Virus record (IMG/VR): IMGVR_UViG_3300028048_001497
Location: 64,001 to 128,000 of that record
Strand: one strand, 5' to 3'
DNA length: 64,000 nucleotides
Origin: a virus
Lineage: Duplodnaviria; Caudoviricetes
Under the pieces are notes generated by a model. It saw only the letters and a program-made list of their open reading frames with translations. It did not search any database and had not been told where the DNA came from. Below are positions 30,901 to 55,992 of the stretch, piece by piece (positions within the stretch are counted from its first letter, which is position 1; each line of letters starts with the position of its first letter). A program made the position numbers and the translations under genes.

Positions 30901-30929
30901 AAAAAGATGTTTTGTAAGACCTAGAAAAT

Positions 30930-32059: not shown

Positions 32060-32068
32060 GGTAAAATT

Positions 32069-33973: not shown

Positions 33974-34037
33974 GAATATATTTTGTTATTGTAAAAAGAA
34001 AATTTTGTTAACTTTTTAGAAGGAATGATATATATAT

Positions 34038-34289: not shown

Positions 34290-34298
34290 ATAAAATGA

Positions 34299-34326
34299 AG
34301 GAGTGGATAAAACCACTCCTATTTTT
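34299..34326 (+). terminator. intrinsic terminator
   Basis: aggagtgg / ccactcct plus attttt. Confidence 0.75.
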
Positions 34327-34393
34327 ATATGGAGCGCCGTAAAACCCCGCCCTTTAGGGCTGGTGATATAAGGTGCGAGAACTGAATTAAGTA

Positions 34394-34422
34394 TTGACAA
34401 GTTTCAACATTTGTAGTATAAT
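34394..34422 (+). promoter_or_regulatory. consensus sigma70 promoter of tnpB
   Basis: TTGACA-17-TATAAT. Confidence 0.8.
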
Positions 34423-34453
34423 ATAAACAAAACAACAAAAAGGAAGTGAGAAA

Positions 34454-36118: not shown

Positions 36119-36154
36119 ATAAAATTTGTGCGAAAGGTTTAGGTGTTCATAACT

Positions 36155-37151: not shown

Positions 37152-40100
37152 ATGGCAGATAATGGTGTTGAAAATAGTAAAATTTTTGATGTAAGCGGTG
37201 TTAATAAAACGAATGAAACAGGAACATCTATAACCGAAGGTGCTACTCAAACAAAAATTAATATGCAGAGTGATTTTACTAGCATTGGCAACAGTATTAA
37301 TGGATTAAAAGATGCTTTAAAATCGGTTCAAAATGTAAGTAATCTGTATAGTATTGACGGAGCATTACAGACAATACAAAAGTTGTCACAACAAATAAAT
37401 GATTTGTCTAATTCAAACAATGTTACATTAGATGGTTCTAGCGAAATACAACATTTAACAAATATTATTCAACAAATACAACAAGAAGAAGCAAATGTTA
37501 AGAATGATTTGGAAACTGCTATAAATGTAGCAATTGATAATTCTGATACGCAAAGAGCAAATGAATATGAACAGGTTTTATCTAAAGCAGAAGATGCCGT
37601 TAGAGAAGTAACAGGCGCATTAACTCAATCTGTCAATAAAATGAGAGATGCTGGGGAGAAAAGCCAAGAAATTATTATACAACAAGCTGAACAATTAAAA
37701 CAATCAGGACATGTTGTATCAACTGCTATAAATGAAGTGGAACAGGCTACCAGCAAAGCGACAGAAAGCACACAAGGATTAGCAGAGCAGACTAAAAATC
37801 AAGTAGCAGATGTTAATGCTTTAATACAAGATTTGGAAAAATCTACAGGAACGACTAGACAATTAATCGATTCTATTTCTGATTTGTCAAAAACGTTCGT
37901 AGAACAAGGCGAAAATGGAATTGCACAAGGGTTAGAAGAATTAAAAACCCAATTAGAAGATACCCAAGCAAATCCTACTTTAGATAGTGTTTCAACTAGT
38001 GTATCTAATATAACAACGTCTGTAAATAATACATTAGCTAATTTGTCTGATTTACAAGCAACTGAAAATGGTTCTAATACAGAAATGTTGATTGGCAGAC
38101 AAAGACTATTAGAAAAAGTTAGAGATAGTTTTAACGATAAACTAGAACAAACGATAGCATTATTACAATTAAAGAACAACAATCATATTTTTGATAAAAA
38201 TATTGAAAATATGCAAAAAACTCTTAGTGAGTTAAATAGTAAATTATCTACTTCATTAGATAATAATCATAATGAATTTTTAAAAGCTATTGATAATGCT
38301 AAAACAAATTTTTTAAATATTCAAAAAAACGCAATAACTAGCGGAACAACTGAATATAATTCTATTAGTCAACAAATGGCTAAAGATAGCCTAGCTGGTA
38401 TTAAATTTAATGATTTAGCATCAGGTGCTAATGACGCTTTAATTTCACTTGAATATTCACAAGGGAAAAATACGCCTTGGTATCAGTATGTAACAACAGG
38501 AAATTTATTAGGAAATAAAACCACTTTAGCACATAATTTTAAAAATACGCAAAGAGAAGCCGTTGCAGCAGATGGTTCTTATCAATCATTAGTTAATGCA
38601 GTTATGAACGGAACGGTTGATAAAGATAATGATAATGCAAAAAAAGCAGAATTAATCGGTAATTTAGCAGGGGACACTTTATCCATGAGTGGTTCTGTCA
38701 GAAATACTGCACAAGGTATGCATTTGTTAGCTGGCGGTGGGAAAAATTTAACTGCTGAAGATAAAAAAGTCTTTGAAACTTTCCAAAAACAGATTGATAA
38801 TTCATTAGAAAATTTAACTAGAACAATTAATGCTATAGAAGATTTAGACCCTAAAAACAAGACATTAAAACAATTACGTGAAGAACAAAAAGCGTTAATT
38901 GATTTAAAGAATAAGGCAGATAAAGCGAAAGAAAGTTCTTCCGCTCTTTCAAACATATTTTCAGATATAGCAAAAGGTTTAGGAAAATTAAAGAGTTTAC
39001 TTGCAGGTGGATTGTCCTTCTTAGGATTAGGAGCATTATTGTCTCCTATGCAAATGATAAGAGGTGCTATTGGGCAAGAAGAAGCTGAAGGTAAACGTAG
39101 ATACCAAGTAGCAATTAATGACTTCTCTATGGGAGCAAATCTTAATGGTGGTCGTATTGCAGATATAGCTCGTTATAGAGCAAATGAATATTTTAAAATG
39201 ACTAACGGTATGGTTAAAGAAGATGATTATCTTAATCATTATAAAACTTTAACACAAACTGTTGGTGGACATTATAATTCTGACCCAAATTCTAATATGC
39301 AAGATATTGCTCAAATGACAGAGAATACTTTTGCATGGGGCTTAACAAATGGTGTAGATGGCTCTACCATTGGTGCTTTTTATAAAAATACATATAAAGA
39401 TTTAGGTATGTCTGCAAGTGAAGCTACACAGGCTTTGGTCAATGTAGGACAAGCTGCACAAGCAGCAGGAATACCTGTAAAACAATATGTATCAACAGTA
39501 AATCAGCTATCATCTAATTTAATTAATCATGGTGTAAGTGCACGTCAAGTTATGGCTACTATGGCACGTTTGACTGTTGGTAGAGGTATGCGTATAGAAG
39601 ATGCATCAGGATTAATTCAAAGTACTGCCAATGCTAATGAAAATATGGCAAAAGATATGAATAATAGTGCTTTTTATGGCATGATGGCAGGCCAAGGTGG
39701 TAATCCTTTTGAATTAATTTTACAAGGATTTAAGCCATATAACAAAGATGGTAGACCAAATGAGGATTATTATTCCATGATGGCTGACCGTGTATTTGCA
39801 CAGGCAGATTTAATGGGAGGTATTGGCGGTAATGGTGCTCTAGGTGGAGTTATGTATATTCAAAACCTTATGAGTCAAGGATATTCAAGAGCACAGGCTT
39901 CACAACTAGAAGATGCAAGAGCACATGGAGATAAAGGATTATTTAGAGATTTAATTAAAAAATTCGATGAAGAAAAAGACGGCGGAAAGACTGCTTATAC
40001 AGAAGCAATAGGAAAAGCAAAAGAACAATTAAAAGCTGCTGGTGACCAAGTTTCTATATTCCAAAAATTAGAAACAGATTTAGTAGAAGCCCAAAAGAAA

Positions 40101-43022
40101 TTAGGTTGGGCTATTAATAAATATTTGTCTGGGCCACTTTCAGAATTTCGTAAAGGATTCGCTAATGTTTTAGATAGATTAACTAAAACTGTTGGTGAAT
40201 TAATGAAAGCTATTGCAGATTTTGTAGGTAAACATGATATACCTGGTGCTATTAGTAATGTAGCTAATTTTGCAGAAGAAAATTCTGCACTTACTGCTAC
40301 TGCTGCGATTGGAGCACCATTAGCTTTAATTGGTGGTGGAGCAGTTGCTAAGAACTTTTTAACCAAATCTATGGCAAATTCTAACTCTAAAGTGGCACAA
40401 AACATATTAAAATATGGTTCAAAAGTGCCAGGAGCAGGAAAAATCGTAGCAGGTGGATTAGCATTAGCGGCTGGTGCAGCAGTACTTGGTTCAGGTGCAT
40501 TATCAGCATTAGTAGGAATGTTTAAAACAGGTGATGCTAAAGCACAAGCAACAAATCAAGGTTCAGAAGCAAATGATGGAATTGCAGAACAAGCGATTCA
40601 AAATTTAAATTCTAGTTTAGAATACAATGCTAATAGTGACGTTGCAAATTCTGAAGGTACTACACCTAGTTCTAGTTATAGTAGCGAGTATGCAAGTGAA
40701 CATGCTGGCGATGAAAACAGTTATTATTATGGTACAGGATGGTCAGAAGATTATAGTCAAATTGACTCTGCTTTAATAGATAAAAAAGGAGACTATAATG
40801 AAAGTCTAAGTAATGCAGAATTTTTAAATCAATCTATCAAAGAACGCTATGGCGATGAAATAGAGAATTATAAAATAGCAAATCCAAATGATGTTTATGT
40901 AAATGCAAATACAGGTGAAGCTGCAGAAGATTGGGAACAACGTGAAAAAAATCTTGACAAAACAACATTAATTAATAATGCAGGATTAATCGCAGGTGGA
41001 ACGATTGCAGTTCCTGGTGCAGCTGCATTGGCAGTTGCTAAAAAATATAATTTGATTAATAAAGATAGATGGGATGCATTAAATAATGTTGCAAAAAAAG
41101 GCAAATGGTGGTCAAGATTTGCCAAATTAGGTAAATTTGGCGGTCCTCTTGGAGCTGGGATTACTCTTGCAGACGAAATAATTAACGAATTTAGTGACGA
41201 AAATAGCGATAACTATAGTATGGGACAACACGTAGCAAGAGTTGCTTTTAGAGGTGGCGGTGCAATTGCAGGTGGTCTAGCAGGTGCAAAATTAGGAGCT
41301 TTAGCAGGTTCTTTGGTTGGCCCAGCTGGTACTATTGTTGGAGGATTTTTAGGTGGTACGGCAGGTGCTCTAATTGGTGGATTTGCAGGAGAAGGATTAC
41401 AAAATTCATCTGTTGGTGATGCATTAGGAATTTCAGATAAATCTGCCATTAAAACTGCCCATGATTCTTATGCTGCAAAAGTAAAACAATCAGCTAGTTT
41501 ATATGGTGATGCAACAAAGAGCATAGTTTCATCTAATGATAATAGACAAAAAGCAGCTGCGCGTGCTCTTTCTGAACATGGAATTAAATTGGAAGATTTA
41601 ACAAATGACCAAGAACAATACATTAATAATGTATATAATGATTTAAAGTCTCGTGGATTGGCAGATGAAGTTGCTGCGTTTGTTGCAGGATTAGCTGCAG
41701 GTACAGTAGCAGATAAGCAAAAAAATGATGCAGAATATGCTTTTAATAATGATGAAATATCAAAAGGCAAAGGAATGAAAAAAACGGCAGAGGTTGCAGC
41801 TAATGAGTGGATGACAGATGAACAAAAAGAACAAGGATTTGAAAGTTTAGACCCAAATGAATTATCAGGGCATGATACAACTTGGTCTTTGAAACTCGGA
41901 GGTATGTATTTAGAAGATGGTGGGAAAGATAATAATCTTTCTATAGAAGAAAAGAAACAACGCTTAAGTTTGTTAGGTCAAATTATGGGTGGAACGAATG
42001 CTGGTTCTGGTGAAGATAAAATTGCAAATGCTATTATGAATGATAGCGATTGGACAGATATAGCCGGTCATTTAGTTTCAGGTCCATTTAGAAACGGAGA
42101 TAGAGCAACAATAGCTAATATATTCCAAGATTCTAATTTAGAAAATTTTAGTGATGAAGATATTAATAAAGCATATAATATGGCTTATAATGAAGTTGCT
42201 TATGTTTCGTCTACACAAAATGAAGATGCCATAAAGAAAAATATGGAAAGCGTTGTCTCTACTACGCCTAATCCTAAAGATGTTGGAGACAAAATGCAAC
42301 TCAACAAGCCAAATCCTCCTGATAATCCAAATAAGGATAAGGATAAAGAACAACCTAAGAAAAATGAAAAACAAGGTGGAACTCTTGAAAGCAATATGGA
42401 TAATGCTATGAAAAACATAGAAAATATGCAAGGACAAATTGGTGAATTAGCAGGACTAAAAAATAGAGATTTGTTAAGAGATAAAATTGCTACAGGTCAA
42501 TTGCTTTTAGATGGTGCAACTGCTTTATCATCAAACGGCAAAATGTTATCTTTGCGTGGAGCTAGAGATTTGTTTAGAGCTTATTCTGGTGTAAGAGATA
42601 ATGATTTGTATGGTTCTAGCTTGCAAGGTGCATATGGTCCAAAAGGTGAAATTTTAGAAGGCGCTGGAGTATTTGATATTGGCAGAAAAATGGATGAAAA
42701 ACAACATGTAGCGTTTAAAAAATATACTGCTAGTTCTGAATATCGTAGAGACACAAGTGGACTAGATAGTGCTATGGAAGCCTTAAAACAATCCTATGAT
42801 AAAGTCCACGAACAAAATAGAGAAATTTATGATACAAAAAAAGAAGAACAAGCCAAAAAAGAAATGGAAAAGAATCAACAAATATATAAAAGTGCAGAAA
42901 TTAATATAATCAACAATAGAAAAGACGTTTATATTAATCAAGCAAAACCAATAGCAGAAACTTCTGAAGCTCAAAAAGTTGCTGAGGATAATGCAGCAAA
43001 GGCACAAGCAGGAGTTAGTTAA
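37152..43022 (+). CDS. tape-measure-like protein 1
   Basis: 1956 aa, helical Q/N/A-rich, hydrophobic GG-rich segments, follows a chaperone. Confidence 0.8.
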   Translation: MADNGVENSKIFDVSGVNKTNETGTSITEGATQTKINMQSDFTSIGNSINGLKDALKSVQNVSNLYSIDGALQTIQKLSQQINDLSNSNNVTLDGSSEIQHLTNIIQQIQQEEANVKNDLETAINVAIDNSDTQRANEYEQVLSKAEDAVREVTGALTQSVNKMRDAGEKSQEIIIQQAEQLKQSGHVVSTAINEVEQATSKATESTQGLAEQTKNQVADVNALIQDLEKSTGTTRQLIDSISDLSKTFVEQGENGIAQGLEELKTQLEDTQANPTLDSVSTSVSNITTSVNNTLANLSDLQATENGSNTEMLIGRQRLLEKVRDSFNDKLEQTIALLQLKNNNHIFDKNIENMQKTLSELNSKLSTSLDNNHNEFLKAIDNAKTNFLNIQKNAITSGTTEYNSISQQMAKDSLAGIKFNDLASGANDALISLEYSQGKNTPWYQYVTTGNLLGNKTTLAHNFKNTQREAVAADGSYQSLVNAVMNGTVDKDNDNAKKAELIGNLAGDTLSMSGSVRNTAQGMHLLAGGGKNLTAEDKKVFETFQKQIDNSLENLTRTINAIEDLDPKNKTLKQLREEQKALIDLKNKADKAKESSSALSNIFSDIAKGLGKLKSLLAGGLSFLGLGALLSPMQMIRGAIGQEEAEGKRRYQVAINDFSMGANLNGGRIADIARYRANEYFKMTNGMVKEDDYLNHYKTLTQTVGGHYNSDPNSNMQDIAQMTENTFAWGLTNGVDGSTIGAFYKNTYKDLGMSASEATQALVNVGQAAQAAGIPVKQYVSTVNQLSSNLINHGVSARQVMATMARLTVGRGMRIEDASGLIQSTANANENMAKDMNNSAFYGMMAGQGGNPFELILQGFKPYNKDGRPNEDYYSMMADRVFAQADLMGGIGGNGALGGVMYIQNLMSQGYSRAQASQLEDARAHGDKGLFRDLIKKFDEEKDGGKTAYTEAIGKAKEQLKAAGDQVSIFQKLETDLVEAQKKLGWAINKYLSGPLSEFRKGFANVLDRLTKTVGELMKAIADFVGKHDIPGAISNVANFAEENSALTATAAIGAPLALIGGGAVAKNFLTKSMANSNSKVAQNILKYGSKVPGAGKIVAGGLALAAGAAVLGSGALSALVGMFKTGDAKAQATNQGSEANDGIAEQAIQNLNSSLEYNANSDVANSEGTTPSSSYSSEYASEHAGDENSYYYGTGWSEDYSQIDSALIDKKGDYNESLSNAEFLNQSIKERYGDEIENYKIANPNDVYVNANTGEAAEDWEQREKNLDKTTLINNAGLIAGGTIAVPGAAALAVAKKYNLINKDRWDALNNVAKKGKWWSRFAKLGKFGGPLGAGITLADEIINEFSDENSDNYSMGQHVARVAFRGGGAIAGGLAGAKLGALAGSLVGPAGTIVGGFLGGTAGALIGGFAGEGLQNSSVGDALGISDKSAIKTAHDSYAAKVKQSASLYGDATKSIVSSNDNRQKAAARALSEHGIKLEDLTNDQEQYINNVYNDLKSRGLADEVAAFVAGLAAGTVADKQKNDAEYAFNNDEISKGKGMKKTAEVAANEWMTDEQKEQGFESLDPNELSGHDTTWSLKLGGMYLEDGGKDNNLSIEEKKQRLSLLGQIMGGTNAGSGEDKIANAIMNDSDWTDIAGHLVSGPFRNGDRATIANIFQDSNLENFSDEDINKAYNMAYNEVAYVSSTQNEDAIKKNMESVVSTTPNPKDVGDKMQLNKPNPPDNPNKDKDKEQPKKNEKQGGTLESNMDNAMKNIENMQGQIGELAGLKNRDLLRDKIATGQLLLDGATALSSNGKMLSLRGARDLFRAYSGVRDNDLYGSSLQGAYGPKGEILEGAGVFDIGRKMDEKQHVAFKKYTASSEYRRDTSGLDSAMEALKQSYDKVHEQNREIYDTKKEEQAKKEMEKNQQIYKSAEINIINNRKDVYINQAKPIAETSEAQKVAEDNAAKAQAGVS

Positions 43023-43043
43023 TAAAACAAGGGGTTATGTGAT

Positions 43044-46000
43044 ATGGATTACACCGAAAAATTACAACAAAAGACAAGCATTGACAAAAAAATAGCGGAA
43101 ATCTCTGACGGTGTAAGAATGGCACTTAACGAAAAACAAGCACTTGTAACAGAATTTCTTTCAAATGAAGATAATTTAGGCAAGAATGTCAAAAAAGAAT
43201 TTGAAGGTTTTGGAGACACTATTAATAAATTATCTACTATTTTAAATGTTTTTGCAAAATTACAACAATCTAGTCAATCAGGATTTATTGCAAACAATGT
43301 TAAAATGCAGGAAGATTTTTTATCGTCTTTAAGAACAATCCAAGATATGATTAAAAACGATGAAAATCTTAAACATACATTAATTAGTGTGCAAACTGGT
43401 GATGGTAAAAAAAGACAAGTATTTCGATTAATCAATAATTTTGGTAATATGATTGACGAGTTTCAAAACGAAACAGATATATCTAAATTACAATCATTAC
43501 CATTATTAAATAATTTTGATTTATCTACAATTGGTAGTGAAGATTTAAAACATATTTATGAAGCATATCAATCTCCGAATCAAATAGTTGATGTAAATGG
43601 TACAACAAAAACTTTATTTGATTTGGTTAATAATCAGTATGTAAATAAAATTTCAGATATTATTGAAAGAGCTACACATCAAGTAAAATACGCAAAAGAA
43701 GAAACACATAAAACATCAAATCAGATTTTACTAGAATTGGTCAATCAAGTAAAAGATGAAAAGTTTAGTGGTAAAACAGAAAAAGAACAAAAAGAAATAA
43801 TAAATCAACTGTTTCGTCTCAAATCATATGCAGATAAAGTAGTTGAAGAATATAGTCAAACTCCAATTGATACAAATCAAGGGAATTATGATAAAATTAA
43901 TCAATTTATTCGTTTGGCAAAAGATATTCAAAAAGAATTAGACGAACAACAAGAAGAAGAAGAAAATAAGAAAAAAACAGATGTAGATAAATTTAATAAT
44001 ATACAGGGGTTTATTGCCAATTTCTTTAGTACGATTTATGATGAAGAAACTAAAGGAACGGTAACTGATTTAAATGCATTGAATGAAGTATTAACACAAG
44101 GTTCATTTCGTGGTAAAATAAATAATCTTGCGGATGAAATGAATTATGCTAATACAAGTATAAATGATGATAATAAAGGAAAAAAAGAAAAATACGATGC
44201 AATTATTCAACAACAAAGAACACAGGTAGCTACAAAAACTTCTTTTGATAATAAAGCATTAACGGATATATCTTCTTATTTAAAAATTAATCCGACAGAC
44301 AATGATTTATTTGATGTAAGTAATGCACAGTTTGCTAATGTTGTTGATAATGTTCGTAGGAAAAACGTAGCTTTTAATAATTTAACAAAAGACTTTTTTG
44401 GTAATACTTCTTTAACTTTTAGAGCAAATGAAAATAGTAGTTTGCTAAAACCAATGATGGTTGGTGCTTATGATGTTACAAAAGCAAATAGAGAAATGCT
44501 TTCACAAGTAAGTACAAATCCAATTAGTTATGCTTTATTTACAAATGATGAAGATAAACAAAAATTACAAGAATTGTCTCAAACTGTCCATCAAACGGTA
44601 GATAAATTAAACAAAATATTGTTTGCTTATTCTAATTTGGAACAAAAACCGAATGAATATTATAAATTAAAAGATGAAAAAGAAGCACTCGAATTACAAT
44701 TACATCATATAGATGATTTACAACAATCTTTAAATGGGTTTGCAGATACATTAAGATATTTAAGAATATTTAAAGACAAGATGCTAGGTTTATTAGCAGG
44801 TGGTTTATCATTTCTAGGTATTGGTGCAATTTTACATCCATTACAGATGTTACACGATGTTACAGAACAGGCAAAACAAAATGGTCAAATGCGTTATAAT
44901 ATTGCTTTAACTGATACTGCATTTGGTGCAAATCCAAGTCAAAGCAATATTTATGATTTAAGCTATTACGCTCCGTCACATTATTTTATGGCTACTTATG
45001 GACAAATACCATATCAAACAGTAAGTGAAATGTATCGTGGATTTCAATCTTCTATTGGTGGACAATATGGTAACGGTCCTGAAGCTAACCGTAGAGATAT
45101 GGCATGGCTATCAAAAAATTTAGTCCCAGATAAAGTACTTTTAAATGTTGATAGTGGCAATTTACAAAGTTTTATGAAAACTTTTTATCGTGACATGAGA
45201 ATGTCTGCGCAAGATGCTACGATTAAATTAAGGTCTTTAGAAACATTTGCTCAAAATAACGGCATACCTGTAAATAATTTACTTCAAGCATTTAATTCAA
45301 GTAATGAAGCTATGCGCCAATTAGGTATGAACCAAGAAAAATATTTGGATGCTATGACTTCATTAATTGGAGTAAATAATATGCGTATGGAGGATGCAAA
45401 TGCATTAGTTCAACAAACTGCTCATAATACTGGTACATTCGCAGAAGATTGGTCCAGGAATATGTTTTGGGGATTATGGAAAAATCCTGAAAAATCATCA
45501 TTTGATGTGCTATTATCAGGATATAAATCGCATGATAGAAATGGTAAACCAATAGATTCATATTATGATAATTTAATTGATAGAATGTTCGCGGAACAAG
45601 ATTTCTTTGGTTCTCGTTTTGGTGGTATTCATACAACAATGGGACAAGTAAGTGCATTTAATAAAATCTTAGAACAAGGTTACACTATTAAACAAGCACA
45701 AGAGATTGTTCAATTAAAAGAAGAAGGTCGTAATGAGGAATTAAAAGAAAAATTAAAAGGTTGGGATAAATTAAAAAATGACCCTATGGCTTTACCACAT
45801 ACGACACAAGAATATACTGCTCAATTACATCAGGCAGGAGAACAATTAAGTGAATTTACAAAAATTCAAGCTACTTACAAACAATTTATTAATAACATTT
45901 CTTTCTTATTAGAAACTACCATGTCAAAAGAGTTGGAAATTGGATTAAAAGCATTAGAAAAAATTATTGATACATTTACTTCTGTTATGGTAGAAATAAT

Positions 46001-48935
46001 AAGACAGATTGGTGGGTTCTTTAATTCTCCATTGGGGAAAGCATATATGAACTCGTTTAAAAGTTCTCCATTTTTAACTATTGGCGGTACATTATTGGGT
46101 GCAGTTGCTTTAAGAAAAGGAGCAGGGTATCTTGTTAAGGGTGGTTTTAATGCGTTAAAAAATGTTGCTATGGGAAAACCATCAGGAATAAGTAAGGCAA
46201 AAGTTTTGGGTGGCGGTGCAGTAGCTCTATTAGGTGCAGGTGGTCTTGCATGGAATCAATATGAAGGATTGCAAGAACAAGCAAATAAATTAGGAGAAAA
46301 ACCACCACAAAACGAATTGGCAGAAATGTTTGCCAATGGTACTGCTAAAATGCAATTAATTATTAATCCTGATAAAAAAGATTATACAATTTTAAAGTAT
46401 GCAAGTTTGTTGGCTTTAGCAGGTGTTCCTATTTATTTGATTTCTCGATTGTTAAATAAAATGTCATTGAAAGGTAAAACAAAATATGCAAATGAATTAA
46501 AACTTTTAAGACATTTATCTAAAAATTCAAATAGACAATTAAAAGCATTTACAAATCCAAGAAAAACACGTAGATTTGCAAAATTAAGACAACAATTAAA
46601 AGAACATAAAAAACTAACTAGAAGAAAGTTTCAAAAATATCAAAGAGAACGTAAATTATATGTGCAACAAATAAAAAAAGCGAGAGCAATACAAAAGCAT
46701 AATCAAATAATTCGAGCAAGAATACAAGCTAAAAGAAAACTTGCTAGAGAAAAACTTGCACAACATTTGAAATGGTCAAAAAGATTTAAATATGCAAAAC
46801 GTAGTGGCTTGTTAGCAATTGGAGCTGCGTTTTTAACAAGTTTATTTGATAAAGATGTAAGAAATAGTACTATTGGTTCTATTGATGCAGGTTTAGCAGG
46901 TGCTTTTATTGGTGGTGCTTTAGGTGGTACAAAAGGAGCTATGCTTGGTGGTGCAATTGGAGCAGGTGCGTCTGAATTGTTACAGACAAATGATGAAAAA
47001 GCAAGTCAAGCATTGGCGAGTGAAATGAAACAAGAAGCAGAAATGCAGAAAGATGATAGTTTAGCAGGTCTAGTTCTTGATTCACCATCTAAAAAACAAA
47101 CAGAAACGCAACAATATAAAGCTAGTCATGCAGATGAACAATCTAAAAAACAATCAAAACAATTTAATCAATATGTTAATTACAAAAAAGCAGAAACAGA
47201 AGCATATAACAAAGAAAAAGAAATGGAAATACAACGTAAAACCATTGATGATTCATCTGAAATGATTAATGCGACAAATGATTTGTATACACAAGAAAAA
47301 CGTCAAAGTTTAGAATCTCATGGTATTCAATGGGGACAAGTTGCAACTCATGAAAAACAAATTTGGCAAACAACTTATGAAAATTTCTTAGCAGTTTATC
47401 AAGATAGAAAAATGGCATTGGAAATGGCTGCGAAAGCACTCATAGCTTGTAAGAGTATGGGTGGCGGTAGTGGAATAAATGGTGCTCCAACATCATTTGT
47501 TGAATATGGTAATAGAATGTTACAAAGTGCTCCACCAGAAATACGTCAAATGATAAAAAATGCGCATGATAAATATCCAAATGTTCCTGAGTTTGTTATT
47601 GCGGCAATTGCCGCACATGAAAGCGGATTTCAAAATGTAATGAATGGTCAAGGCTCTGGTGCAACAGGTATGATGCAAATAATGCCTGGTACAGCCGCAG
47701 GTGTTGGATATGGAGATACAGATAGATTACTTCATGACCCACAATATAATTTAATGGCAGGTACAGCATATGTAAGCACTTTAGCATCTAATTATGATTC
47801 ATGGGCAAAAACTATAGCTGCATATAGTTTAGGTGGTGGAGCGATTGATGGTTTAATTAAAAAATATGGAAATGATTGGTATAGACATTTGGAAGAAGCA
47901 GATGAAGCGTCAGGTGTACCTGGTCAAACAACAAATTATTTAAAAAGTTTGGGATTAATGGATGAAAATGGAAATTTAAAACCTGAAAATGCAAGTTCCG
48001 TATCTATATCTCCTAGTGTGTCTAGTCCTCCAGGCGCAGAATATAGTGGGGATTTAGGTGTTGATTTTTCTCATTTAAGATGGAGTGGATTCGTAGCAGA
48101 AAAAGGATGGGACCATAGTTATGATGCACATGCAAATTCTGCACAATATATTGCCATGGATATTGGTAGATTAACTCCAAAAGCGAAACAAAGATTAAAT
48201 GCATTAACACAATTATATGCAAAATATAGTAATGGTGGAACATTAGAATGGAACGTAGCTACATTAGGGCATGACCCTGGTACGGCACATACTACAGGAA
48301 GAAAAATTGATATTGCTAGTGGTGGAGTTAATGAAGAAGCACTAATTAAAGCAGGTAATGAAGCTCATGTTGGTGTAGATAGAGAAGACCCTTATCACTA
48401 TGATTTGTTATTAGAAGGTACAGGTTCAAATCATTTGGGACCAGTTATAACAGAAAGATTTTCTTGGGATGATGCAAATTCAAATGGTGATTCAGGAGCA
48501 AATCCAAAATTAAATCTTAATTTGAATCTTGAAGATATAAAACCAAAAACATTAAAAGAACAATGGGATGACAGTTGGAAAGCGTATAAAAAAGCAGTTC
48601 ATAATGGTAAAGCAAAGCATGGTGCTCTAGTTAATGGTGTTTATATTGATACATCAAAACCATATCAATCTATTGAAGCAATAGGAAAAGAAATAAGAGA
48701 AAAAAATAGAAAACAATGGGGTGGATTGGAGGATTATGTAAAAGAAAAAGATAAACAAAGTAATTTTAATGGAATAAAACAACAACAAGAAGTATTAGAC
48801 CATGAAGATATTCAAATGAAACTAACCAGAGAACAAATGGATTCAAATCAAATTGTTAATTTTGTTAAGGATGTTAAAGACGCTTTAAGTGCTTTGTATG
48901 AACCATCAGGCTTTAATGTAGCTTGTGTTGTATAA
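43044..48935 (+). CDS. tape-measure-like protein 2 with lytic transglycosylase (SLT) and M15-peptidase-like domains
   Basis: AHESG...GATGMMQIMPGTA...AAYSLG; HTTGRKID...HYD; shared core with TMP1 and TMP3. Confidence 0.8.
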   Translation: MDYTEKLQQKTSIDKKIAEISDGVRMALNEKQALVTEFLSNEDNLGKNVKKEFEGFGDTINKLSTILNVFAKLQQSSQSGFIANNVKMQEDFLSSLRTIQDMIKNDENLKHTLISVQTGDGKKRQVFRLINNFGNMIDEFQNETDISKLQSLPLLNNFDLSTIGSEDLKHIYEAYQSPNQIVDVNGTTKTLFDLVNNQYVNKISDIIERATHQVKYAKEETHKTSNQILLELVNQVKDEKFSGKTEKEQKEIINQLFRLKSYADKVVEEYSQTPIDTNQGNYDKINQFIRLAKDIQKELDEQQEEEENKKKTDVDKFNNIQGFIANFFSTIYDEETKGTVTDLNALNEVLTQGSFRGKINNLADEMNYANTSINDDNKGKKEKYDAIIQQQRTQVATKTSFDNKALTDISSYLKINPTDNDLFDVSNAQFANVVDNVRRKNVAFNNLTKDFFGNTSLTFRANENSSLLKPMMVGAYDVTKANREMLSQVSTNPISYALFTNDEDKQKLQELSQTVHQTVDKLNKILFAYSNLEQKPNEYYKLKDEKEALELQLHHIDDLQQSLNGFADTLRYLRIFKDKMLGLLAGGLSFLGIGAILHPLQMLHDVTEQAKQNGQMRYNIALTDTAFGANPSQSNIYDLSYYAPSHYFMATYGQIPYQTVSEMYRGFQSSIGGQYGNGPEANRRDMAWLSKNLVPDKVLLNVDSGNLQSFMKTFYRDMRMSAQDATIKLRSLETFAQNNGIPVNNLLQAFNSSNEAMRQLGMNQEKYLDAMTSLIGVNNMRMEDANALVQQTAHNTGTFAEDWSRNMFWGLWKNPEKSSFDVLLSGYKSHDRNGKPIDSYYDNLIDRMFAEQDFFGSRFGGIHTTMGQVSAFNKILEQGYTIKQAQEIVQLKEEGRNEELKEKLKGWDKLKNDPMALPHTTQEYTAQLHQAGEQLSEFTKIQATYKQFINNISFLLETTMSKELEIGLKALEKIIDTFTSVMVEIIRQIGGFFNSPLGKAYMNSFKSSPFLTIGGTLLGAVALRKGAGYLVKGGFNALKNVAMGKPSGISKAKVLGGGAVALLGAGGLAWNQYEGLQEQANKLGEKPPQNELAEMFANGTAKMQLIINPDKKDYTILKYASLLALAGVPIYLISRLLNKMSLKGKTKYANELKLLRHLSKNSNRQLKAFTNPRKTRRFAKLRQQLKEHKKLTRRKFQKYQRERKLYVQQIKKARAIQKHNQIIRARIQAKRKLAREKLAQHLKWSKRFKYAKRSGLLAIGAAFLTSLFDKDVRNSTIGSIDAGLAGAFIGGALGGTKGAMLGGAIGAGASELLQTNDEKASQALASEMKQEAEMQKDDSLAGLVLDSPSKKQTETQQYKASHADEQSKKQSKQFNQYVNYKKAETEAYNKEKEMEIQRKTIDDSSEMINATNDLYTQEKRQSLESHGIQWGQVATHEKQIWQTTYENFLAVYQDRKMALEMAAKALIACKSMGGGSGINGAPTSFVEYGNRMLQSAPPEIRQMIKNAHDKYPNVPEFVIAAIAAHESGFQNVMNGQGSGATGMMQIMPGTAAGVGYGDTDRLLHDPQYNLMAGTAYVSTLASNYDSWAKTIAAYSLGGGAIDGLIKKYGNDWYRHLEEADEASGVPGQTTNYLKSLGLMDENGNLKPENASSVSISPSVSSPPGAEYSGDLGVDFSHLRWSGFVAEKGWDHSYDAHANSAQYIAMDIGRLTPKAKQRLNALTQLYAKYSNGGTLEWNVATLGHDPGTAHTTGRKIDIASGGVNEEALIKAGNEAHVGVDREDPYHYDLLLEGTGSNHLGPVITERFSWDDANSNGDSGANPKLNLNLNLEDIKPKTLKEQWDDSWKAYKKAVHNGKAKHGALVNGVYIDTSKPYQSIEAIGKEIREKNRKQWGGLEDYVKEKDKQSNFNGIKQQQEVLDHEDIQMKLTREQMDSNQIVNFVKDVKDALSALYEPSGFNVACVV

Positions 48936-49029
48936 AAATTTTATCGTAAGATAAGACCCCCACTTCTAAGCTACGAGGTAGCCGTTAGGCTACCGAGTAA
49001 CGAAAGTGGGGGATGACTAATACTAACTC

Positions 49030-49058
49030 TTGACTATTTTTACAAATAGTGATACAAT
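49030..49058 (+). promoter_or_regulatory. retained tnpB promoter in the MITE
   Basis: TTGACT-17-TACAAT. Confidence 0.65.
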
Positions 49059-49139
49059 TAAATCAAAGGAGGTAAAACAAAATGCTAAAAGCGTACAAAT
49101 TCAAATATCTTGAATGAAGGTAAAAGGCTACTAAAAGTA

Positions 49140-49319
49140 GCCTAAACCATATAAAAACTGTACCGTAGGGCTTACGGAATCAGTATAAAACTAAGCCTAT
49201 GGAGATTGTGTAAGACGTAAAAATGTATGGCTACGCCATACCTCATGCGGTTTCACCGCATACGCTACGGTCTGAGAAGTAGGAATCCCCCCACCTCTTT
49301 AGGTGGGGGAGGATGTCAA
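49140..49319 (+). ncRNA. omegaRNA scaffold carried by the MITE
   Basis: homologous to the reverse complement of 27929-28105; changes such as ccgtagggcttacgg vs ccgcagggcttgcgg preserve the stem. Confidence 0.65.
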
Positions 49320-49404
49320 TTGATATAATATTTCCAATAAAATTATCTATATTTTAATTAGATGATAAAAATTTTTCATAATAGGAAGGATTTGACATAA
49401 TATT

Positions 49405-49815
49405 ATGGCAACTAAAAATAAAAATGATAAATTGATTTCTGAAATGCTTGCAGATTTGATTGACCCCAGTGAGGAAACAGAAGTTGTAGAAAAGTATGGT
49501 AAGAAATGGGCTATGCGTCCGATTTCTTCACAGGAATATCTTGAAGCATTAAAGGAAAGTCAGAGTTATAATAAAGATGATTTAACTCGTATGTTCGGTA
49601 TGCAGATTAGTATTCTTAAACATGCTTTGGTTTCTGTAAACGATTTGGTTCTTACAGATGAACAAAAGACAAAGGTTCTAAATGCAATTAGTCCTGCCGT
49701 TCTTACAACATTGTATAATGAGTTTGAAGTTATTCGTCATAAGAATGATGATGAAATTTCAAAGATTGAAAATGCTTCAGCAGAAAAAACAAAAAATGAC
49801 ACAATTGATGCTTAA
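49405..49815 (+). CDS. tail assembly chaperone, short (G-like) form
   Basis: KYGKKWAMRPISSQEY...LKHALVSVN...LYNEF aligns with the N-domain of 36155..37132. Confidence 0.7.
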   Translation: MATKNKNDKLISEMLADLIDPSEETEVVEKYGKKWAMRPISSQEYLEALKESQSYNKDDLTRMFGMQISILKHALVSVNDLVLTDEQKTKVLNAISPAVLTTLYNEFEVIRHKNDDEISKIENASAEKTKNDTIDA

Positions 49816-49828
49816 CAATTTTTAATAA

Positions 49829-49860
49829 AAAAGTGGTTCTACTTGAATAGAACCACTTTT
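49829..49860. terminator. intrinsic terminator
   Basis: aaaagtggttcta / tagaaccactttt. Confidence 0.8.
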
Positions 49861-49866
49861 ATTTTG

Positions 49867-49880
49867 TATTTTTTTTATAG
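49867..49880 (+). promoter_or_regulatory. putative phage late promoter TATTT-N6-TAG
   Basis: tattt ttttta tag. Confidence 0.6.
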
Positions 49881-49917
49881 GTATTATACGAAAAATAGAA
49901 GTTGGTGAGATTAAATA

Positions 49918-52900
49918 ATGGCTGAACAGATTGTTACATTATCTGATACACAGATAGAACAAACAAAAGAAAAGTTTGAAAAACTTACAAAAGAAATTAA
50001 TCATTTTAATGAACAATTAAATACATTAGTACAAAAATCTTTTGATAACAATAAATTCCAAGAATTATCGGTTGTAATTGAAAAAGTAGCACAGATGAAA
50101 AACAATCAGCAGGAATTTATGGATTTGTTGATGTCTGATTTGTCAGATAAAAGTTTACAACCATTATATGATGGATTAATCAATCAACGTAATATAGCTT
50201 TAACTATTATTTCTAGGATTGGCAAAATTAATGAAAAATCATCAAAGAGTTTAGACGATTTTACAAAGAATGTTGTTGATACATTAACAAAAATTTCTGA
50301 TGATTTTGCTAAAAACGTTGAAGATACAACAGATGTAATTCAAAATTTATCTTCTAATTTTAAAACAAAAGAAGATAAAATTTTAATAGACAGAAAAGTT
50401 TTTTTGAATACAATGCTACAAATGTATTCAGATTTAAAACAAGTTGATATTGCAAAACTTGATGCTTTAACAAATCTTAATGAAGAAGCAGCTAATAAAG
50501 TTATTAATAGATATTCTGGTCAGTCAAAAGCTAAATTAACCAATTTAATTAAGCGTGTTACAGAAGAAGTTAATCAAACTGTTCGAGATAATACTGTTAC
50601 AGATGGTTCTTTAAGTTTACTTGCACAAATAAAAGAAATTCGAGAATTAAATATTAATAATTCAGGTGACGTTAGAGACGTAACTAGAATGAGTAATATT
50701 TTGACTCGTTTAGCAGATGTTAATAAAGACAATCTGGAACAAAGAAAAAATGGATTACTTAGTTCTGTTTCATCTGGTAATTTTTCTGATTTTGCAAAAA
50801 TAGATAAATTTGTTACATTATCTACAGAAAAAGCAACCAAAAATATGCAAGAAATTGTATCTATGAGTGAATCCATTAGTAATAGTAATCCTGATAATCC
50901 AACTGTTGCAAAAATAAATAATGATAAAATAGTACCACAAATTCAAACTTTGATAGAAGATGTTTATAAAGCAAATTCGGAAGTTTTAACCTCTGCTATA
51001 ACAGAATTTGGCAATCAATTTGACGAAGAAGCACATGGTAATGATGAAACTCATTATAATAATGTTCAAGCATTAAATTTGTCTAATGCTTTTACTATGT
51101 CAAGAACATCAAATTATAATAATTTCCGTTTTAATAATGCTTTCAATGGCATGTTTTCTTCTGATACAGAATTAAATCAATTATACAACAATTATAACAG
51201 AAGTACATATGTCTATAATAATGAGATTAAAAGTATATTAAGTAATGAAGAAAACACATCAAAAAAATATGGTATAGATAAAAATGATTTATTGTTGAAT
51301 GATATAAAATCAGGGAGATTATCTTACGGATTAGGGAGTAGCAATCAAAATCTAATACAATTATCTCACGAATTTAATCAACGTAAATTATCTGGAGCAA
51401 ATAAACATGATGAAGAAACTGCTAAAGACATGAGTAAGATGTTGGCAGAAGCTATTCATCAAACGTATCAACAGATATATGTTACTTCTCGTTTTGACCC
51501 AGATTCTAAATTATTAAAAACATTAAAAGAACAAGCAAAACAATTAGAAGAAGAAAAAAATGATTTAGACGAAAGTATCAAGAACAAAGAACTGCAAAAA
51601 CACCATAGTTTATTTAAAGATATAAAAAGTGTAGCAGGATTTTTTGGTAAAGCACTTGCTTTAATGGGGCTAGGTGGACTATTTTCTATTCATAGTTGGA
51701 TGGATAAGATTAAAAATAGAGCCAATGCTAATGGTGAAATGTTGTATAACAACTATTTAGCAAATGCTTCTATTGGTGCTCCCATGTCTCAAAATGCGAA
51801 TGAACTTGTATTTGGATTGGGACAAAATCTTTATACTGCTTCTTATGGACAAATAGATTTTGGTGTTCCATCAGCATTTTATAGAAGTTTAGCTGGTTCT
51901 ATATTAGGTGGTCAAGGTGGACAAAAAGCAAGTGATTTAATGAATTTTACACGTGCTTTTGTTGTACCGTCACAATTATATGGAATTGATGCAGGTACAT
52001 TTTCACAAGGGATAAATGCGTTTTATTACGAAAATCGCATGTCTGCAAAAGAAACGATTGGTATGATGTATCGTGTTATGGCAGACGCTAAAAAAGCACA
52101 AATACCAATTAATCAATACATGAATCTTATTTCGCAGATGGTAACTCAATATAGAACATTAGGTTATAACGGAAAACAAACTGTTGATAACATGAGTTAC
52201 ATGATTGCAGAAGGTTATCGTGCAGAAGATGCAAAATCTTTTATTGGACAGATGTATGATGCACAACAAAACTTTTCTGCAAATTTATATAATTCTGTCT
52301 ATTCTGTTATTGGCGGTGGCGCGGATAACATGTGGCAGGGTATGTATGCTAATTTAAAAACTGTAGATAGATTTGGTAATCCATATAAAGATAGACAAAA
52401 ATATGTTGGTTCTCAAATGTTAGCTAAATTGCATATGGTTACAGATATGTTTGACAATCCTATTATGAAACAATTTGGTGCATATCAGGTAACTAAAGGA
52501 ATGGGTTTGAATATGAAAAATTCAGATGCTATTCTATATGCGATAGAAGATGGTGATGAATCAAAACTTGAAACACTTTTTGAAGGAGCACAACAAGACG
52601 AATTAAGCAAAAATCAAGCTGCAACAGAAGCTACTAAAGGTTTCACGCAGGAATTACAACAAGCGTCTAGCTTATTGTCAGAAACACAAAAGAATAAAGC
52701 AGAAATGATGGCTTCTGCTAATAAATTATCTGATAATTTTGTTGGTCATGGACAAGCTATGCAACAATTTGAACAGATAGCAGAAGAAGGTATCAATAAA
52801 GTAGAGCAGGTAATGGAGCAATTAATTGCTTTGGTTGGACAAATACCTGATTTAATAAAAAAATCCCCATTATTATCACAAGCATTTATGTTTGTAGGCC

Positions 52901-55900
52901 AACATCCATTTTTAACATTGGCAGGTGGTTTGGTAGGATGGTCATTATTAAAAAATGGTGCTAAACACGTTTTTAATTTTGCAAAAGAAAAAGCATTTGG
53001 TCATTGGAATGATGTAAAACATAAAGATGTAACAGACGAAGTTAAAGAAACTACACCGTCTGAAACAAAAACATTAAAAGAAGAAACCCCAAAATTAAAC
53101 AATAATAAAGGTTTCTTTAATAATATGAAATCCAGATTAGCGGATTGGAAACCAAAGTCATTTAATAGTAAATCATTATCTAGTTTAACAAAGAAAATCC
53201 CACATAAGGGATTGATGGGTGTTGTTGGAACAGGTATGACATTAGGGGCTATGTTATTGGGAAGTTCTTCTAGTGCTTCTGCAAATCCTTCTGAACAGGG
53301 GGACGAGAATCAATCAGAAGAACAAGATGATGAACAAAGCATAAATTCTATGTATATTATGTTCAAAACTGGTAATTCAAAAGTTACTTTCTATAACAAA
53401 GACGGTAAATTAATTGATGTAACAGGAAGAACAGGCATTGAATCGTGGTTAATGCAAAATGGATTTAGTTTGTTTAGTGCATTAACTGTTGCTACTGCTG
53501 CAGGTGCTAGTGGAAAATTTGCATATGACAAACTTAAACAGTTTAAAGAAGCAAAATTTCCAAAATTTCCTAGTGTAAAAATGCCAAAAGAAATATCTGA
53601 AAAAGATATACAAAATACAGAAAAATTAGCTAATCCATCAACAAAACCATCAATGCTAGATGCAACTCTTACTTTTTTGGGTTTAAAACCGGGTTCTGAA
53701 AAAGGTAAACCAAAAGGAAAAGAAAAATTATCTGAAAAAGAAAAAGTACCAAAAGAAAGTAATTGGTCTAAATGGGGTGGAAGATTATTTAATTTCCTTA
53801 CTGTTGCTGGTTCAGTTGGTAGTGAATTATTATCTGATGATGATAGAACAACAGGACAAAAAGTTGTAGCAGGTGGAATAGAAGCAGGTACGGAATTAGC
53901 TACATATAAAGTTTTGGATAAAACAGTAGGTAGAATACCGTATATTGGCAAACCATTAGCTTTATTATTGCCTTTTGCTGATTCTTTATCAGGTACTAAT
54001 ATAATGTCTAAAATATCAGAAAAAGCAAAGGCATTTGCAGGTGTACAGGCTAAATATAAATCTGGTAATGAAATGTTCCTTGATGCAATGAATAATCAAA
54101 CAGGAATGACAGGTGCAAGTTTTGAGAAATTAATTCATTCTGAAACTGCGCAAGGTAATTATTTTAGAAGTTATTTATCTGCAAACGGTATTGAATATGA
54201 CAAATTAAATGAACAAGAAAAATTATTCTTTAAATTGCAGATGGATGAATTAGCATTTGTGCAACAAAGTGTTGCTAAAGTTCTTGCATTAGCTATTATT
54301 GCATTAAAAAATGCACAAATATCAGGTAATTTTAATTTAAATGATGATGACGATTCTATCTTTAAAAAAGATGGAAAGAAATTAAAAGATGATATTATTC
54401 AAAAAATAAAACAAGATGCTCAAGATTCATTTCCAGAAGGTGGTCATGATTTTGAGAATATTAATCAAGCTGCACATTTTGTAAAATATGGTCAACGTTT
54501 ATATGAAAAATTAAACGATGAAGGGTATGATTCTGAAAAATTAAATCAATTAGCAAGTGCGATTACTTATGCTAAATATAGCGTTTGGGCTATGAATGGT
54601 TTTCAAGATTATGATTTGGATTATTATGGAACAACATGGACAATTACGAACCCATATGAAGATGATTCTTCTGATAGAACTGAAAGCGAAGATATTGCAG
54701 ATACCACCTATTCTGGAGGTATAACACCGGTACTTAAAGAAATTTGGGATAGGTGTCATGGAAAATCTTCGGAAGAAATATCTCGTGAACAAGCTCAAAA
54801 AATTAAAGAAGATTTACAAGAACAGTATGGCGAAACAATTGCAGAACAAATATCAAGTGGATATAATAATTTAATTTTTGCTGGTTGGGTTGGTCCTGTA
54901 AAAAAACAATATATGACTGAATATGCACAAGAAAAAATGGAAAATCCTGATAATATGGAAGATGATACACAACAAAATTCAAATCAAGCTCCAGATTTTT
55001 CAAATGCGAATGCTGGAGCATATGCAAGTATGGTAGAACAAGCTAAAATGATTTCTCAATTAACTGGTTTACCAGCAGATATAATATTTGCGCAATTAGC
55101 ATTTGAAACAGGTCAAAATCCATCTGATATGGCATATTCTGATAAAATTCATAATTATGGTGGGACTACTGTTGATATGGGGCATGGAAAAAATGATAGT
55201 GGCTTTGGTATTTATGTAAACAATAAAGAGGGCGCAGAAGCATATGTAAAAGGTACAGTCCCAGTTAGAGACCAATTACCACAATTAAAGGAAGCAATCG
55301 CACAAGGCGATTTGAAAAAATATGTACATTTATTAAAATATGGTATGGAAGAGTCTGGTAAAGGAAATTATCAATATTTTACTGGCGATGAAAATGAATA
55401 TTTAAATGGTATAATGTCTTATTTATCATTAGCTCATAAATTAGGATTGAATGGTGTAACACCTAATGGTACATTTAATTTTTCAAATTATACTCCTAGA
55501 ACTTTAAAAGAACAAAGTGATAAAGCATGGGAAGATTATAGAAAAGCAGTTGGGAATGGAAAAAAAATAAGCGGTTATTTGGTCAATGGTATTTACATTG
55601 ATACAAGTAGGCAATATCAATCTGTTGAAGAACAAGGTAAAAAATTACGTGAAGCTATGAGGGATGGTTCTTATTATACAGACCCACAAAAAGTATATCA
55701 AGAATTAGACGAACTAAACAAGAAAAATGCAAAGAAAATTGTTGAAGATACTAATACTCAAATCAAAAAACAACAAGAAAGTCAAAAACAAATACAAGAA
55801 ATGGCAAAAAAAGAAGCAGATGCAAAAAAACAACAACAGGAACAAGAAAATAAAGATAAGACTGTTTGTAGTTTGTCTGTTATGGGTACATTAAAACAAG

Positions 55901-55992
55901 GAATAGAATTAGAACAAGTATTAGATGTTATTAAAGCTATTGCGCAAGCAGACGGATTTAATACTGATACGAAAATGGTTCAACAGGGGTAA
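49918..55992 (+). CDS. tape-measure-like protein 3 with glucosaminidase (GH73)-like domain
   Basis: 2024 aa; IIFAQLAFETG...HNYGG...YVHLLK...YFT; shared TMP core and C-terminal block with TMP2. Confidence 0.78.
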   Translation: MAEQIVTLSDTQIEQTKEKFEKLTKEINHFNEQLNTLVQKSFDNNKFQELSVVIEKVAQMKNNQQEFMDLLMSDLSDKSLQPLYDGLINQRNIALTIISRIGKINEKSSKSLDDFTKNVVDTLTKISDDFAKNVEDTTDVIQNLSSNFKTKEDKILIDRKVFLNTMLQMYSDLKQVDIAKLDALTNLNEEAANKVINRYSGQSKAKLTNLIKRVTEEVNQTVRDNTVTDGSLSLLAQIKEIRELNINNSGDVRDVTRMSNILTRLADVNKDNLEQRKNGLLSSVSSGNFSDFAKIDKFVTLSTEKATKNMQEIVSMSESISNSNPDNPTVAKINNDKIVPQIQTLIEDVYKANSEVLTSAITEFGNQFDEEAHGNDETHYNNVQALNLSNAFTMSRTSNYNNFRFNNAFNGMFSSDTELNQLYNNYNRSTYVYNNEIKSILSNEENTSKKYGIDKNDLLLNDIKSGRLSYGLGSSNQNLIQLSHEFNQRKLSGANKHDEETAKDMSKMLAEAIHQTYQQIYVTSRFDPDSKLLKTLKEQAKQLEEEKNDLDESIKNKELQKHHSLFKDIKSVAGFFGKALALMGLGGLFSIHSWMDKIKNRANANGEMLYNNYLANASIGAPMSQNANELVFGLGQNLYTASYGQIDFGVPSAFYRSLAGSILGGQGGQKASDLMNFTRAFVVPSQLYGIDAGTFSQGINAFYYENRMSAKETIGMMYRVMADAKKAQIPINQYMNLISQMVTQYRTLGYNGKQTVDNMSYMIAEGYRAEDAKSFIGQMYDAQQNFSANLYNSVYSVIGGGADNMWQGMYANLKTVDRFGNPYKDRQKYVGSQMLAKLHMVTDMFDNPIMKQFGAYQVTKGMGLNMKNSDAILYAIEDGDESKLETLFEGAQQDELSKNQAATEATKGFTQELQQASSLLSETQKNKAEMMASANKLSDNFVGHGQAMQQFEQIAEEGINKVEQVMEQLIALVGQIPDLIKKSPLLSQAFMFVGQHPFLTLAGGLVGWSLLKNGAKHVFNFAKEKAFGHWNDVKHKDVTDEVKETTPSETKTLKEETPKLNNNKGFFNNMKSRLADWKPKSFNSKSLSSLTKKIPHKGLMGVVGTGMTLGAMLLGSSSSASANPSEQGDENQSEEQDDEQSINSMYIMFKTGNSKVTFYNKDGKLIDVTGRTGIESWLMQNGFSLFSALTVATAAGASGKFAYDKLKQFKEAKFPKFPSVKMPKEISEKDIQNTEKLANPSTKPSMLDATLTFLGLKPGSEKGKPKGKEKLSEKEKVPKESNWSKWGGRLFNFLTVAGSVGSELLSDDDRTTGQKVVAGGIEAGTELATYKVLDKTVGRIPYIGKPLALLLPFADSLSGTNIMSKISEKAKAFAGVQAKYKSGNEMFLDAMNNQTGMTGASFEKLIHSETAQGNYFRSYLSANGIEYDKLNEQEKLFFKLQMDELAFVQQSVAKVLALAIIALKNAQISGNFNLNDDDDSIFKKDGKKLKDDIIQKIKQDAQDSFPEGGHDFENINQAAHFVKYGQRLYEKLNDEGYDSEKLNQLASAITYAKYSVWAMNGFQDYDLDYYGTTWTITNPYEDDSSDRTESEDIADTTYSGGITPVLKEIWDRCHGKSSEEISREQAQKIKEDLQEQYGETIAEQISSGYNNLIFAGWVGPVKKQYMTEYAQEKMENPDNMEDDTQQNSNQAPDFSNANAGAYASMVEQAKMISQLTGLPADIIFAQLAFETGQNPSDMAYSDKIHNYGGTTVDMGHGKNDSGFGIYVNNKEGAEAYVKGTVPVRDQLPQLKEAIAQGDLKKYVHLLKYGMEESGKGNYQYFTGDENEYLNGIMSYLSLAHKLGLNGVTPNGTFNFSNYTPRTLKEQSDKAWEDYRKAVGNGKKISGYLVNGIYIDTSRQYQSVEEQGKKLREAMRDGSYYTDPQKVYQELDELNKKNAKKIVEDTNTQIKKQQESQKQIQEMAKKEADAKKQQQEQENKDKTVCSLSVMGTLKQGIELEQVLDVIKAIAQADGFNTDTKMVQQG

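Follow-up and report, generated by a model that had tools for sequence, protein, structure and literature searches.

Tail length in phages is normally set by a single gene, the product of which, the tape measure protein (TMP), forms a homo-oligomer. In the tail of Anabaena phage A-1(L), the tube lumen contains the TMP as a helical bundle, three distal ends of which form a tripod in the trimeric hub, and every chain is the same protein, gp13 (PMC10966104). A wall hydrolase can reside within the tape measure, as in mycobacteriophage TM4 and in phiCbK, whose gp95 contains a CHAP domain, spans 1964 amino acids (aa) and accompanies a tail of ~295 nm (PMC3556154); these TMPs and YomI of SPbeta, which carries an SLT domain, are single genes that form homo-oligomers. 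The tail module of Bacillus phage G (Donellivirus), gp178–gp189, is ordered as sheath, two tube-like genes, chaperone, TMP and baseplate, with one 2893-aa TMP (gp183) and a frameshifted chaperone pair (gp181/182). In Bacillus phage 0305phi8-36, which also has one TMP, G and GT are two separate, adjacent genes that have a homologous domain in common and involve no frameshift (PMC2147016). A non-exhaustive literature search returned no report of several TMP genes in one phage. Here we describe a locus with three, termed T1, T2 and T3, in a 64,000-nucleotide stretch (the window) that comprises bases 64,001–128,000 of the single 174,540-bp contig IMGVR_UViG_3300028048_001497 (~30% GC). Our analysis shows that the three arose by an ancient triplication of a tape-measure gene and that they belong to the contractile-tail module of a large, uncultured myophage similar to phage G. 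The best explanation, to which we assign a probability of roughly 0.5, is that their products form a heteromeric tape measure in one tail.

An earlier reading of the window, made from the sequence alone, had described the three proteins as tape-measure-like. Their identity as TMP-type proteins is borne out by synteny, by homology to phage G gp183, by the PhageMin_Tail/TMP_3 core present in the family and by adjoining genes of the G/GT chaperone type. The three genes sit between sheath, tube and chaperone genes on one side and tube-initiator-like and LysM hub-like genes on the other. The T2 core has one match in a cultured phage, gp183 (tblastn, 4e-16; 23.7% identity), which is annotated 'tapemeasure', is the only tape measure of that phage and lies downstream of the sheath, two virion proteins and the frameshifted chaperones. 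The two loci are alike in their homologous core, sheath and gene order, and in the lysin activity annotated for gp183; they differ in that the locus described here encodes three TMPs of ~2000 aa and, as chaperones, a GT fusion and an independent G. A search of 1.84 billion proteins with a profile of the core returned 116 cluster representatives, complete members of which are 1700–4400 aa long; they include a 2893-aa protein that we take to be gp183 (1.2e-51). Among 64 family cores, 25 match PF10145 PhageMin_Tail (best 5.5e-7) and 10 match PF20155 TMP_3, to which the window T2 core itself scores an E value of 0.0082 (16 bits; cut-off, 41). NCBIfam gave no TMP match for the window proteins, and in PHROGs T2 is the only one of the three with matches (phrog_6700, 1.9e-15, and SLT families). 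An AlphaFold2 model of the core, built from the 64-sequence alignment, is all-helical and compact, with a helical-repeat look and ~310 residues at a predicted local distance difference test score above 90. No convincing structural relative of this model was found, either by Foldseek against the PDB (best E value 0.011, to designed helical repeats) or in a wider structure search (VIA best Z 5.9, within the noise for helical proteins), and a sequence-profile search of the PDB returned coiled-coil noise only. Judged by its sequence, the core is most probably a divergent PhageMin_Tail/TMP_3 domain homologous to the phage G tape measure. A podovirus ejectosome of the T7 gp14–gp15–gp16 type and crAss-like cargo proteins were considered as other identities; both are ruled out by the sheath, tube and G/GT chaperone genes, and the ejectosome also by the mutual paralogy of the three proteins and their homology to a myophage TMP.

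The three open reading frames (ORFs) contain no internal stops, and alignment of their products establishes paralogy far above chance. All of the short motifs on which paralogy had been proposed were found and are collinear: LLAGGLSFLG[LI]GA/KALALMGLGG, GKRRY/GQMRY/GEMLY, MSASEA/MSAQDA/MSAKET, IPVKQY/IPVNN/IPINQY, RIEDA/RMEDA/RAEDA and MFKTGDAK/MFANGTAK/MFKTGNSK. By BLASTP, T1 and T2 match with an E value of 7e-63 (28% identity over 620 aa), T2 and T3 with 1e-32 and T1 and T3 with 5e-18. Comparison of ortholog profiles with hhalign aligns T1 454–1071 with T2 425–1035 (E = 1e-101), T1 505–1499 with T3 468–1446 (E = 1.5e-79) and T2 468–1028 with T3 460–1016 (E = 5e-96), with weaker collinear blocks beyond these main matches. 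Identity in the core is only 22–28%. A hidden Markov model of the core divides the proteins into an N arm, core and C arm of 571, 564 and 821 aa in T1, 538, 569 and 856 aa in T2 and 532, 628 and 864 aa in T3, and conserved columns of a 16-protein alignment fall at residue numbers no more than ~40 apart among the three. Each paralog keeps the entire plan of the single-copy ancestor: a proline-poor N arm (0–3 prolines per 100 aa), a hydrophobic glycine-rich segment, a helical core of the PhageMin_Tail/TMP_3 type, a glycine-zipper, a conserved block (B), a swappable peptidoglycan-hydrolase slot and a C-terminal module. Hydrophobic segments lie at residues ~575–630 and ~1090–1140. The C-terminal block reported as common to T2 and T3 is real (BLASTP, 6e-18; hhalign, 2e-24 over 130 columns). 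Neither this T2/T3-type module nor the T1-type module was found in any single-copy member of the family, and both are confined to this clade.

Conservation of the triplet in relatives, which had been put forward as a check, proved ancient: the triplet is intact wherever a contig covers it. Metagenomic contigs as long as 500 kb (designated L or P plus a number) show the following layout: an ORF of ~310–330 aa, T1, T2, an ORF of ~116–150 aa, T3 and an ORF of ~520–690 aa. This layout occurs in L002–L004, L006, L007, L010, L013–L015 and L017–L021, about 10 lineages, among which core identity falls as low as 36%. T1, T2 and T3 form three orthologous clades (Shimodaira–Hasegawa-like approximate likelihood ratio test support, 97–100) with congruent inner branching. 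In a 128-row family tree, these three form one clade (98) nested among the single-copy TMPs L011 (2300 aa), L012 (2405 aa) and P0059 (2142 aa), a topology that points to one ancient triplication. The single-copy proteins are alike in family, in neighbouring genes and in the plan of N arm, core and C arm. Three TMP genes per genome are present, compared with the usual one, and all three copies have remained open over 6 kb despite a GC content of ~30%. On L015 (1904–9481), ~675 nt of AT-rich, non-coding sequence, including a run of N (a scaffold gap), divide T1 into two ORFs, of 1035 and 1264 aa; the interruption could stem from an intron or a mobile insert, or be an artefact of assembly, and a split TnpB gene lies just upstream.

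The chaperone genes were also resolved. The N-terminal domain of ORF A (~115 aa), immediately upstream of T1, is paralogous to ORF B (3e-14), orthologs of which (116–150 aa) stand between T2 and T3 in all relatives. In relatives with a single TMP, that gene is preceded by two adjacent ORFs, one of 115–116 aa (G) and one of 167–194 aa (T). The N terminus of ORF A matches the G116 ORFs (~1e-10) and its C terminus the T167/T194 ORFs (1e-17 to 7.5e-23), whereas ORF B matches only the G ORF. Orthologs of ORF A match the phage G gp181 chaperone (1e-10 and 1e-6), as do those of ORF B, and the best Foldseek match of an AlphaFold2 model of ORF A is the HK97 tail assembly chaperone (2ob9_A; probability 1.00, TM score 0.61 by target, E value 0.11). 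These results show that ORF A is a fusion of G and T and that ORF B is a stand-alone G, the two genes replacing the usual frameshifted G/GT. This two-gene arrangement is a second, frameshift-free route to tail assembly. It differs from that of 0305phi8-36 in that the GT and G genes bracket T1 and T2, lying 12 kb apart, before T1 and before T3.

The sequence-only reading had called the three proteins equal in length and had taken conservation of length despite deep divergence as a sign of a shared ruler. In the window the lengths are close and their equality is approximate, with a spread of 3.4%. T1, T2 and T3 measure 1956/1963/2024 aa in the window, 1940/1952/2012 aa in L002, 2028/1900/1949 aa in L003, 2027/1917/1961 aa in L004, 2054/1932/1925 aa in L006, 2037/1855/1865 aa in L020, 2248/2165/2155 aa in L013 and 2037/1867/1713 aa in L014. 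The L006 T3 length was taken from P0037, the core of which is identical to the L006 T3 fragment; the L020 lengths are first-start ORF calls, and L020 was left out of the length statistics, which cover seven genomes. The claim of conserved length holds in that the spread within a genome is mostly 3–7% and that all three proteins of L013 are ~200–290 aa longer; it does not hold in L014, nor between two subclades in which T1 goes in the opposite direction to T2 and T3. The C arms of L013 measure 995, 1016 and 1058 aa, compared with ~785–930 aa elsewhere, except for L014 T3 (698 aa). Length correlates between T2 and T3 (r = 0.82) and between T1 and T2 (r = 0.75), less so between T1 and T3 (0.38), and C-arm length correlates between T2 and T3 at r = 0.91. 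A column-permutation test of co-variation gave p ~0.013, uncorrected for shared ancestry. Lengths are thus only partly in step. All fall within 1713–2248 aa, compared with 1700–4400 aa across the family, and such bounded, partly co-varying lengths argue for co-assembly in one tail.

An arrangement in series, head-to-tail or staggered, in which tail length would reflect the sum of the three proteins (~5900 aa), could also be read from these lengths. The sums are close in four genomes (5943, 5904, 5877 and 5905), and three of the folded helical-repeat cores, as predicted, might be too wide for the lumen if placed side by side. However, the sum is not kept in L013 (6568) or L014 (5617), each paralog is organised from N to C terminus as a complete single tape measure is, and a tail of ~900 nm would be needed. 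We know of no precedent for tape measures in series, and we give this arrangement hardly any credence.

The heteromeric tape measure is consistent with known tail symmetry, because the TMP in solved tails is a trimer or a six-helix bundle (PMC10966104). One GT and one G chaperone for three TMPs likewise fit a single assembly line. In its strict form, which we put just short of an even chance, the heteromer would be obligate: the three diverged paralogs would enter a single tail tube side by side and in register, as a trimer (1:1:1) or in a six-helix form (2:2:2), and the three unlike chains would break the three-fold equivalence of the lumen. Assembly would be carried out by G and GT chaperones made from separate genes rather than by frameshifting. 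Together the paralogs would set a tail of roughly 290–300 nm; at 0.15 nm per residue, the scaling used in PMC3556154, the expected length is ~293–304 nm. At ejection, each paralog, with its own hydrolase, would deliver a different wall-degrading payload.

The content of the hydrolase slot differs among the paralogs. In the window, no recognised hydrolase was found in T1, relatives of which have NlpC/P60 or M23. T2 has an SLT domain (Pfam, 8e-19) that matches YomI-type TMPs, plus a further domain without a family match; among relatives, T2 has Peptidase_C39_2 with SLT (L013) or without it (L005). T3 in the window matches Pfam Glucosaminidase at 0.013, below the cut-off, and FlgJ at 0.089, and possibly carries a glucosaminidase, whereas T3 of relatives has SLT. 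Among single-copy TMPs, in which the hydrolase domains likewise lie in the C arm, L011 has a VgrG3-like C domain and L012 combines Glucosaminidase and NlpC/P60 in one chain, in contrast to the triple clade, which spreads its hydrolases over paralogs. Assignment of T2 residues 1610–1830 to the LAS/M15 type of peptidase, on the basis of an HxxGxxxD motif, was supported by neither a Pfam nor a PDB phmmer search.

These differing cassettes, swapped among lineages, would also suit a phage that builds each tail around a homotrimer of one paralog, giving up to three virion types per burst with about the same tail length and different payloads as a form of bet-hedging against different host walls. Similar, non-identical lengths would suit interchangeability, and two chaperone genes and two transcription units would be in keeping with it. 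Yet the three paralogs have been distinct since before the clade diversified, with the core divergence and separate T1 C-terminal module described here, whereas rulers able to replace one another by docking to one hub and one terminator should have retained ends in common. Moreover, there is a single GT-type chaperone, not one per TMP. To our knowledge, no phage uses alternative homo-oligomeric tape measures, and we consider this scheme decidedly improbable.

A terminator-like hairpin and T run lie between ORF B and T3 (window 49816–49917) in nine lineages: the window, L002, L003, L004, L006, L007, L013, L014 and L015. The stem sequences differ among the nine, with compensatory changes, and in most lineages the hairpin is followed by a TGTATT-N-TAGA-like sequence. 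From its sequence, this region may be a conserved terminator and late promoter that split the tail module into two transcription units; the candidate promoter TGTATT-N6-9-TAGR is not enriched in the window (5 matches, compared with 2.4 expected). Because T3 would be transcribed with the tube-initiator and hub genes behind this terminator, it is the candidate in an account in which a single paralog sets the length. T1 and T2 would then be accessory proteins of the lumen or of ejection, either mere passengers or active once ejection has taken place, in membrane channel formation or wall hydrolysis. The T1-specific C-terminal module and the loosely matched lengths in L014 agree with this account, and the hydrolase cassettes and the glycine-zipper and transmembrane-like segments suggest roles in envelope penetration. 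However, the whole TMP plan is present in all three proteins, and its parts, the PhageMin_Tail-type core among them, occupy matching residue positions; the size of an accessory passenger should be under no constraint, yet none leaves the range of 1713–2248 aa in a family that spans 1700–4400 aa; and a C-terminal module is common to T2 and T3 rather than peculiar to T3. We regard such a division of labour as unlikely.

Several observations weigh against the heteromeric tape measure. The window proteins fall below the curated TMP thresholds in Pfam and NCBIfam. The T1 C-terminal module differs from those of T2 (E = 0.1) and T3 (8e-4), which is awkward for a heteromer if three ends must dock at identical sites of a symmetric hub. 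The conserved terminator-like hairpin separates T3 from T1, T2 and ORF B, and expression of T1, T2 and T3 need not be equimolar. The length spread in L014 reaches 16%. From the subclade of the window and L002 to that of L003, L004 and L006, T1 changes by +70 to +100 aa and T2 and T3 by −30 to −100 aa; in T1 if not in the others, the shift is tied to replacement of an enzyme cassette, the site being ~110 aa long in the window and ~250 aa, including NlpC/P60, in L003. N-arm lengths correlate weakly (T1–T3, r = −0.23). On L005 (9453–19430), a distant relative, a cut T1 precedes T2 (2130 aa, Peptidase_C39_2) and a G-type ORF B; over 9 kb of genes on the minus strand come next (AAA, PNKP/Hen1 RNA repair and NusG-like), and no T3 was found within 10 kb after ORF B; T3 is displaced or lost there. 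Finally, that the three proteins share a virion or touch one another is an indirect inference. Complex prediction for the last 250 aa of T1, T2 and T3, run on ortholog alignments without controls, gave scores of 0.15 and 0.07 against a mark of 0.32 and speaks neither for nor against binding.

Nearly all genes in the window are on the plus strand, and those of the tail module are listed below.

Features of the tail module in the window (positions are those of the window)
Feature	Position	Strand	Matches and parts
Tail sheath, 721 aa	23668..25833	+	phrog_2839 2.4e-36, phrog_279; phage G gp178 sheath, 43% identity, tblastn 3e-109
Tube-like paralog 1, 212 aa	25879..26517	+	phrog_985 7e-21
Tube-like paralog 2, 225 aa	26533..27210	+	phrog_985 2.9e-18
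ORF A, 329 aa, GT-type tail assembly chaperone, in-frame	36143..37132	+	G-like domain ~1-125, T-like domain ~145-326
TMP1 (T1), 1956 aa	37152..43022	+	core aa 573-1135 (38868-40556); Gly-zipper ~aa 1370-1415; T1-specific C-terminal module aa 1707-1952
TMP2 (T2), 1963 aa	43044..48935	+	core aa 539-1106 (44658-46361); SLT transglycosylase aa 1509-1609 (47568-47870); T2/T3 C-terminal module aa 1826-1962
ORF B, 136 aa, stand-alone G-type chaperone	49405..49815	+	paralog of ORF A N terminus
Terminator-like hairpin between ORF B and T3, 13-bp stem and T run	49829..49860	+	
TMP3 (T3), 2024 aa	49918..55992	+	core aa 534-1160 (51517-53397); weak glucosaminidase/FlgJ-like stretch aa 1708-1809; T2/T3 C-terminal module aa 1845-2023
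Tube-initiator-like protein, 734 aa	56041..58245	+	PF23980 Phage_tail_tube_init 1.1e-4, below cut-off
Hub-like baseplate protein with LysM, 1824 aa	58340..63814	+	phrog_14367 9e-99; weak LysM

PF23980 also matches, weakly or faintly, the gene of relatives that is syntenic to the tube-initiator-like gene, and in single-TMP relatives LysM/CHAP proteins are syntenic to the LysM hub-like protein. Two adjacent tube-like paralogs (~205–229 aa) are kept both in the triple-TMP clade and in single-TMP relatives (window 25879–27210, L003 980–2302 and L001 9014–10332). The duplication of the tube gene appears to be older than the TMP triplication, because the pair is present in the single-TMP relatives too. 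At the corresponding position, phage G has two neighbouring virion structural genes, gp179 and gp180; this likeness is positional.

Between the tube genes and ORF A, the window contains ~8 kb of mobile and modification genes (27547–35575): two HNH endonucleases, two IS605-type TnpB genes on opposite strands, a CmoA-like methyltransferase and an intein-split C5 DNA methylase. At this spot L003 and L014 have almost nothing, and L002 has methyltransferases only, without the intein; the order of the tail genes is the same in relatives that lack the mobile-DNA insert. A non-coding element of ~390 nt (48945–49339) occupies the spacer between T2 and ORF B, which is 470 nt long in the window and ~60–130 nt in relatives. 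Close relatives lie on contigs of 281–500 kb, which suggests that the 174.5-kb record may be only part of a jumbo-phage genome.

In the long-tailed phages studied so far, and in the literature searched, the ruler is the homo-oligomeric product of one gene, whereas in this clade three diverged rulers of similar length have persisted from a time before its diversification. The locus raises the questions of how length would be read out from a mixed bundle, how unlike C termini would dock on a symmetric hub and how a helical-repeat core of ~310 aa would fit the lumen, or whether it is stored unfolded. It also raises the question of whether splitting the hydrolases over paralogs would allow a larger enzyme kit to pass through a narrow tube. 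The clade is a natural experiment on the co-variation of tape-measure length.

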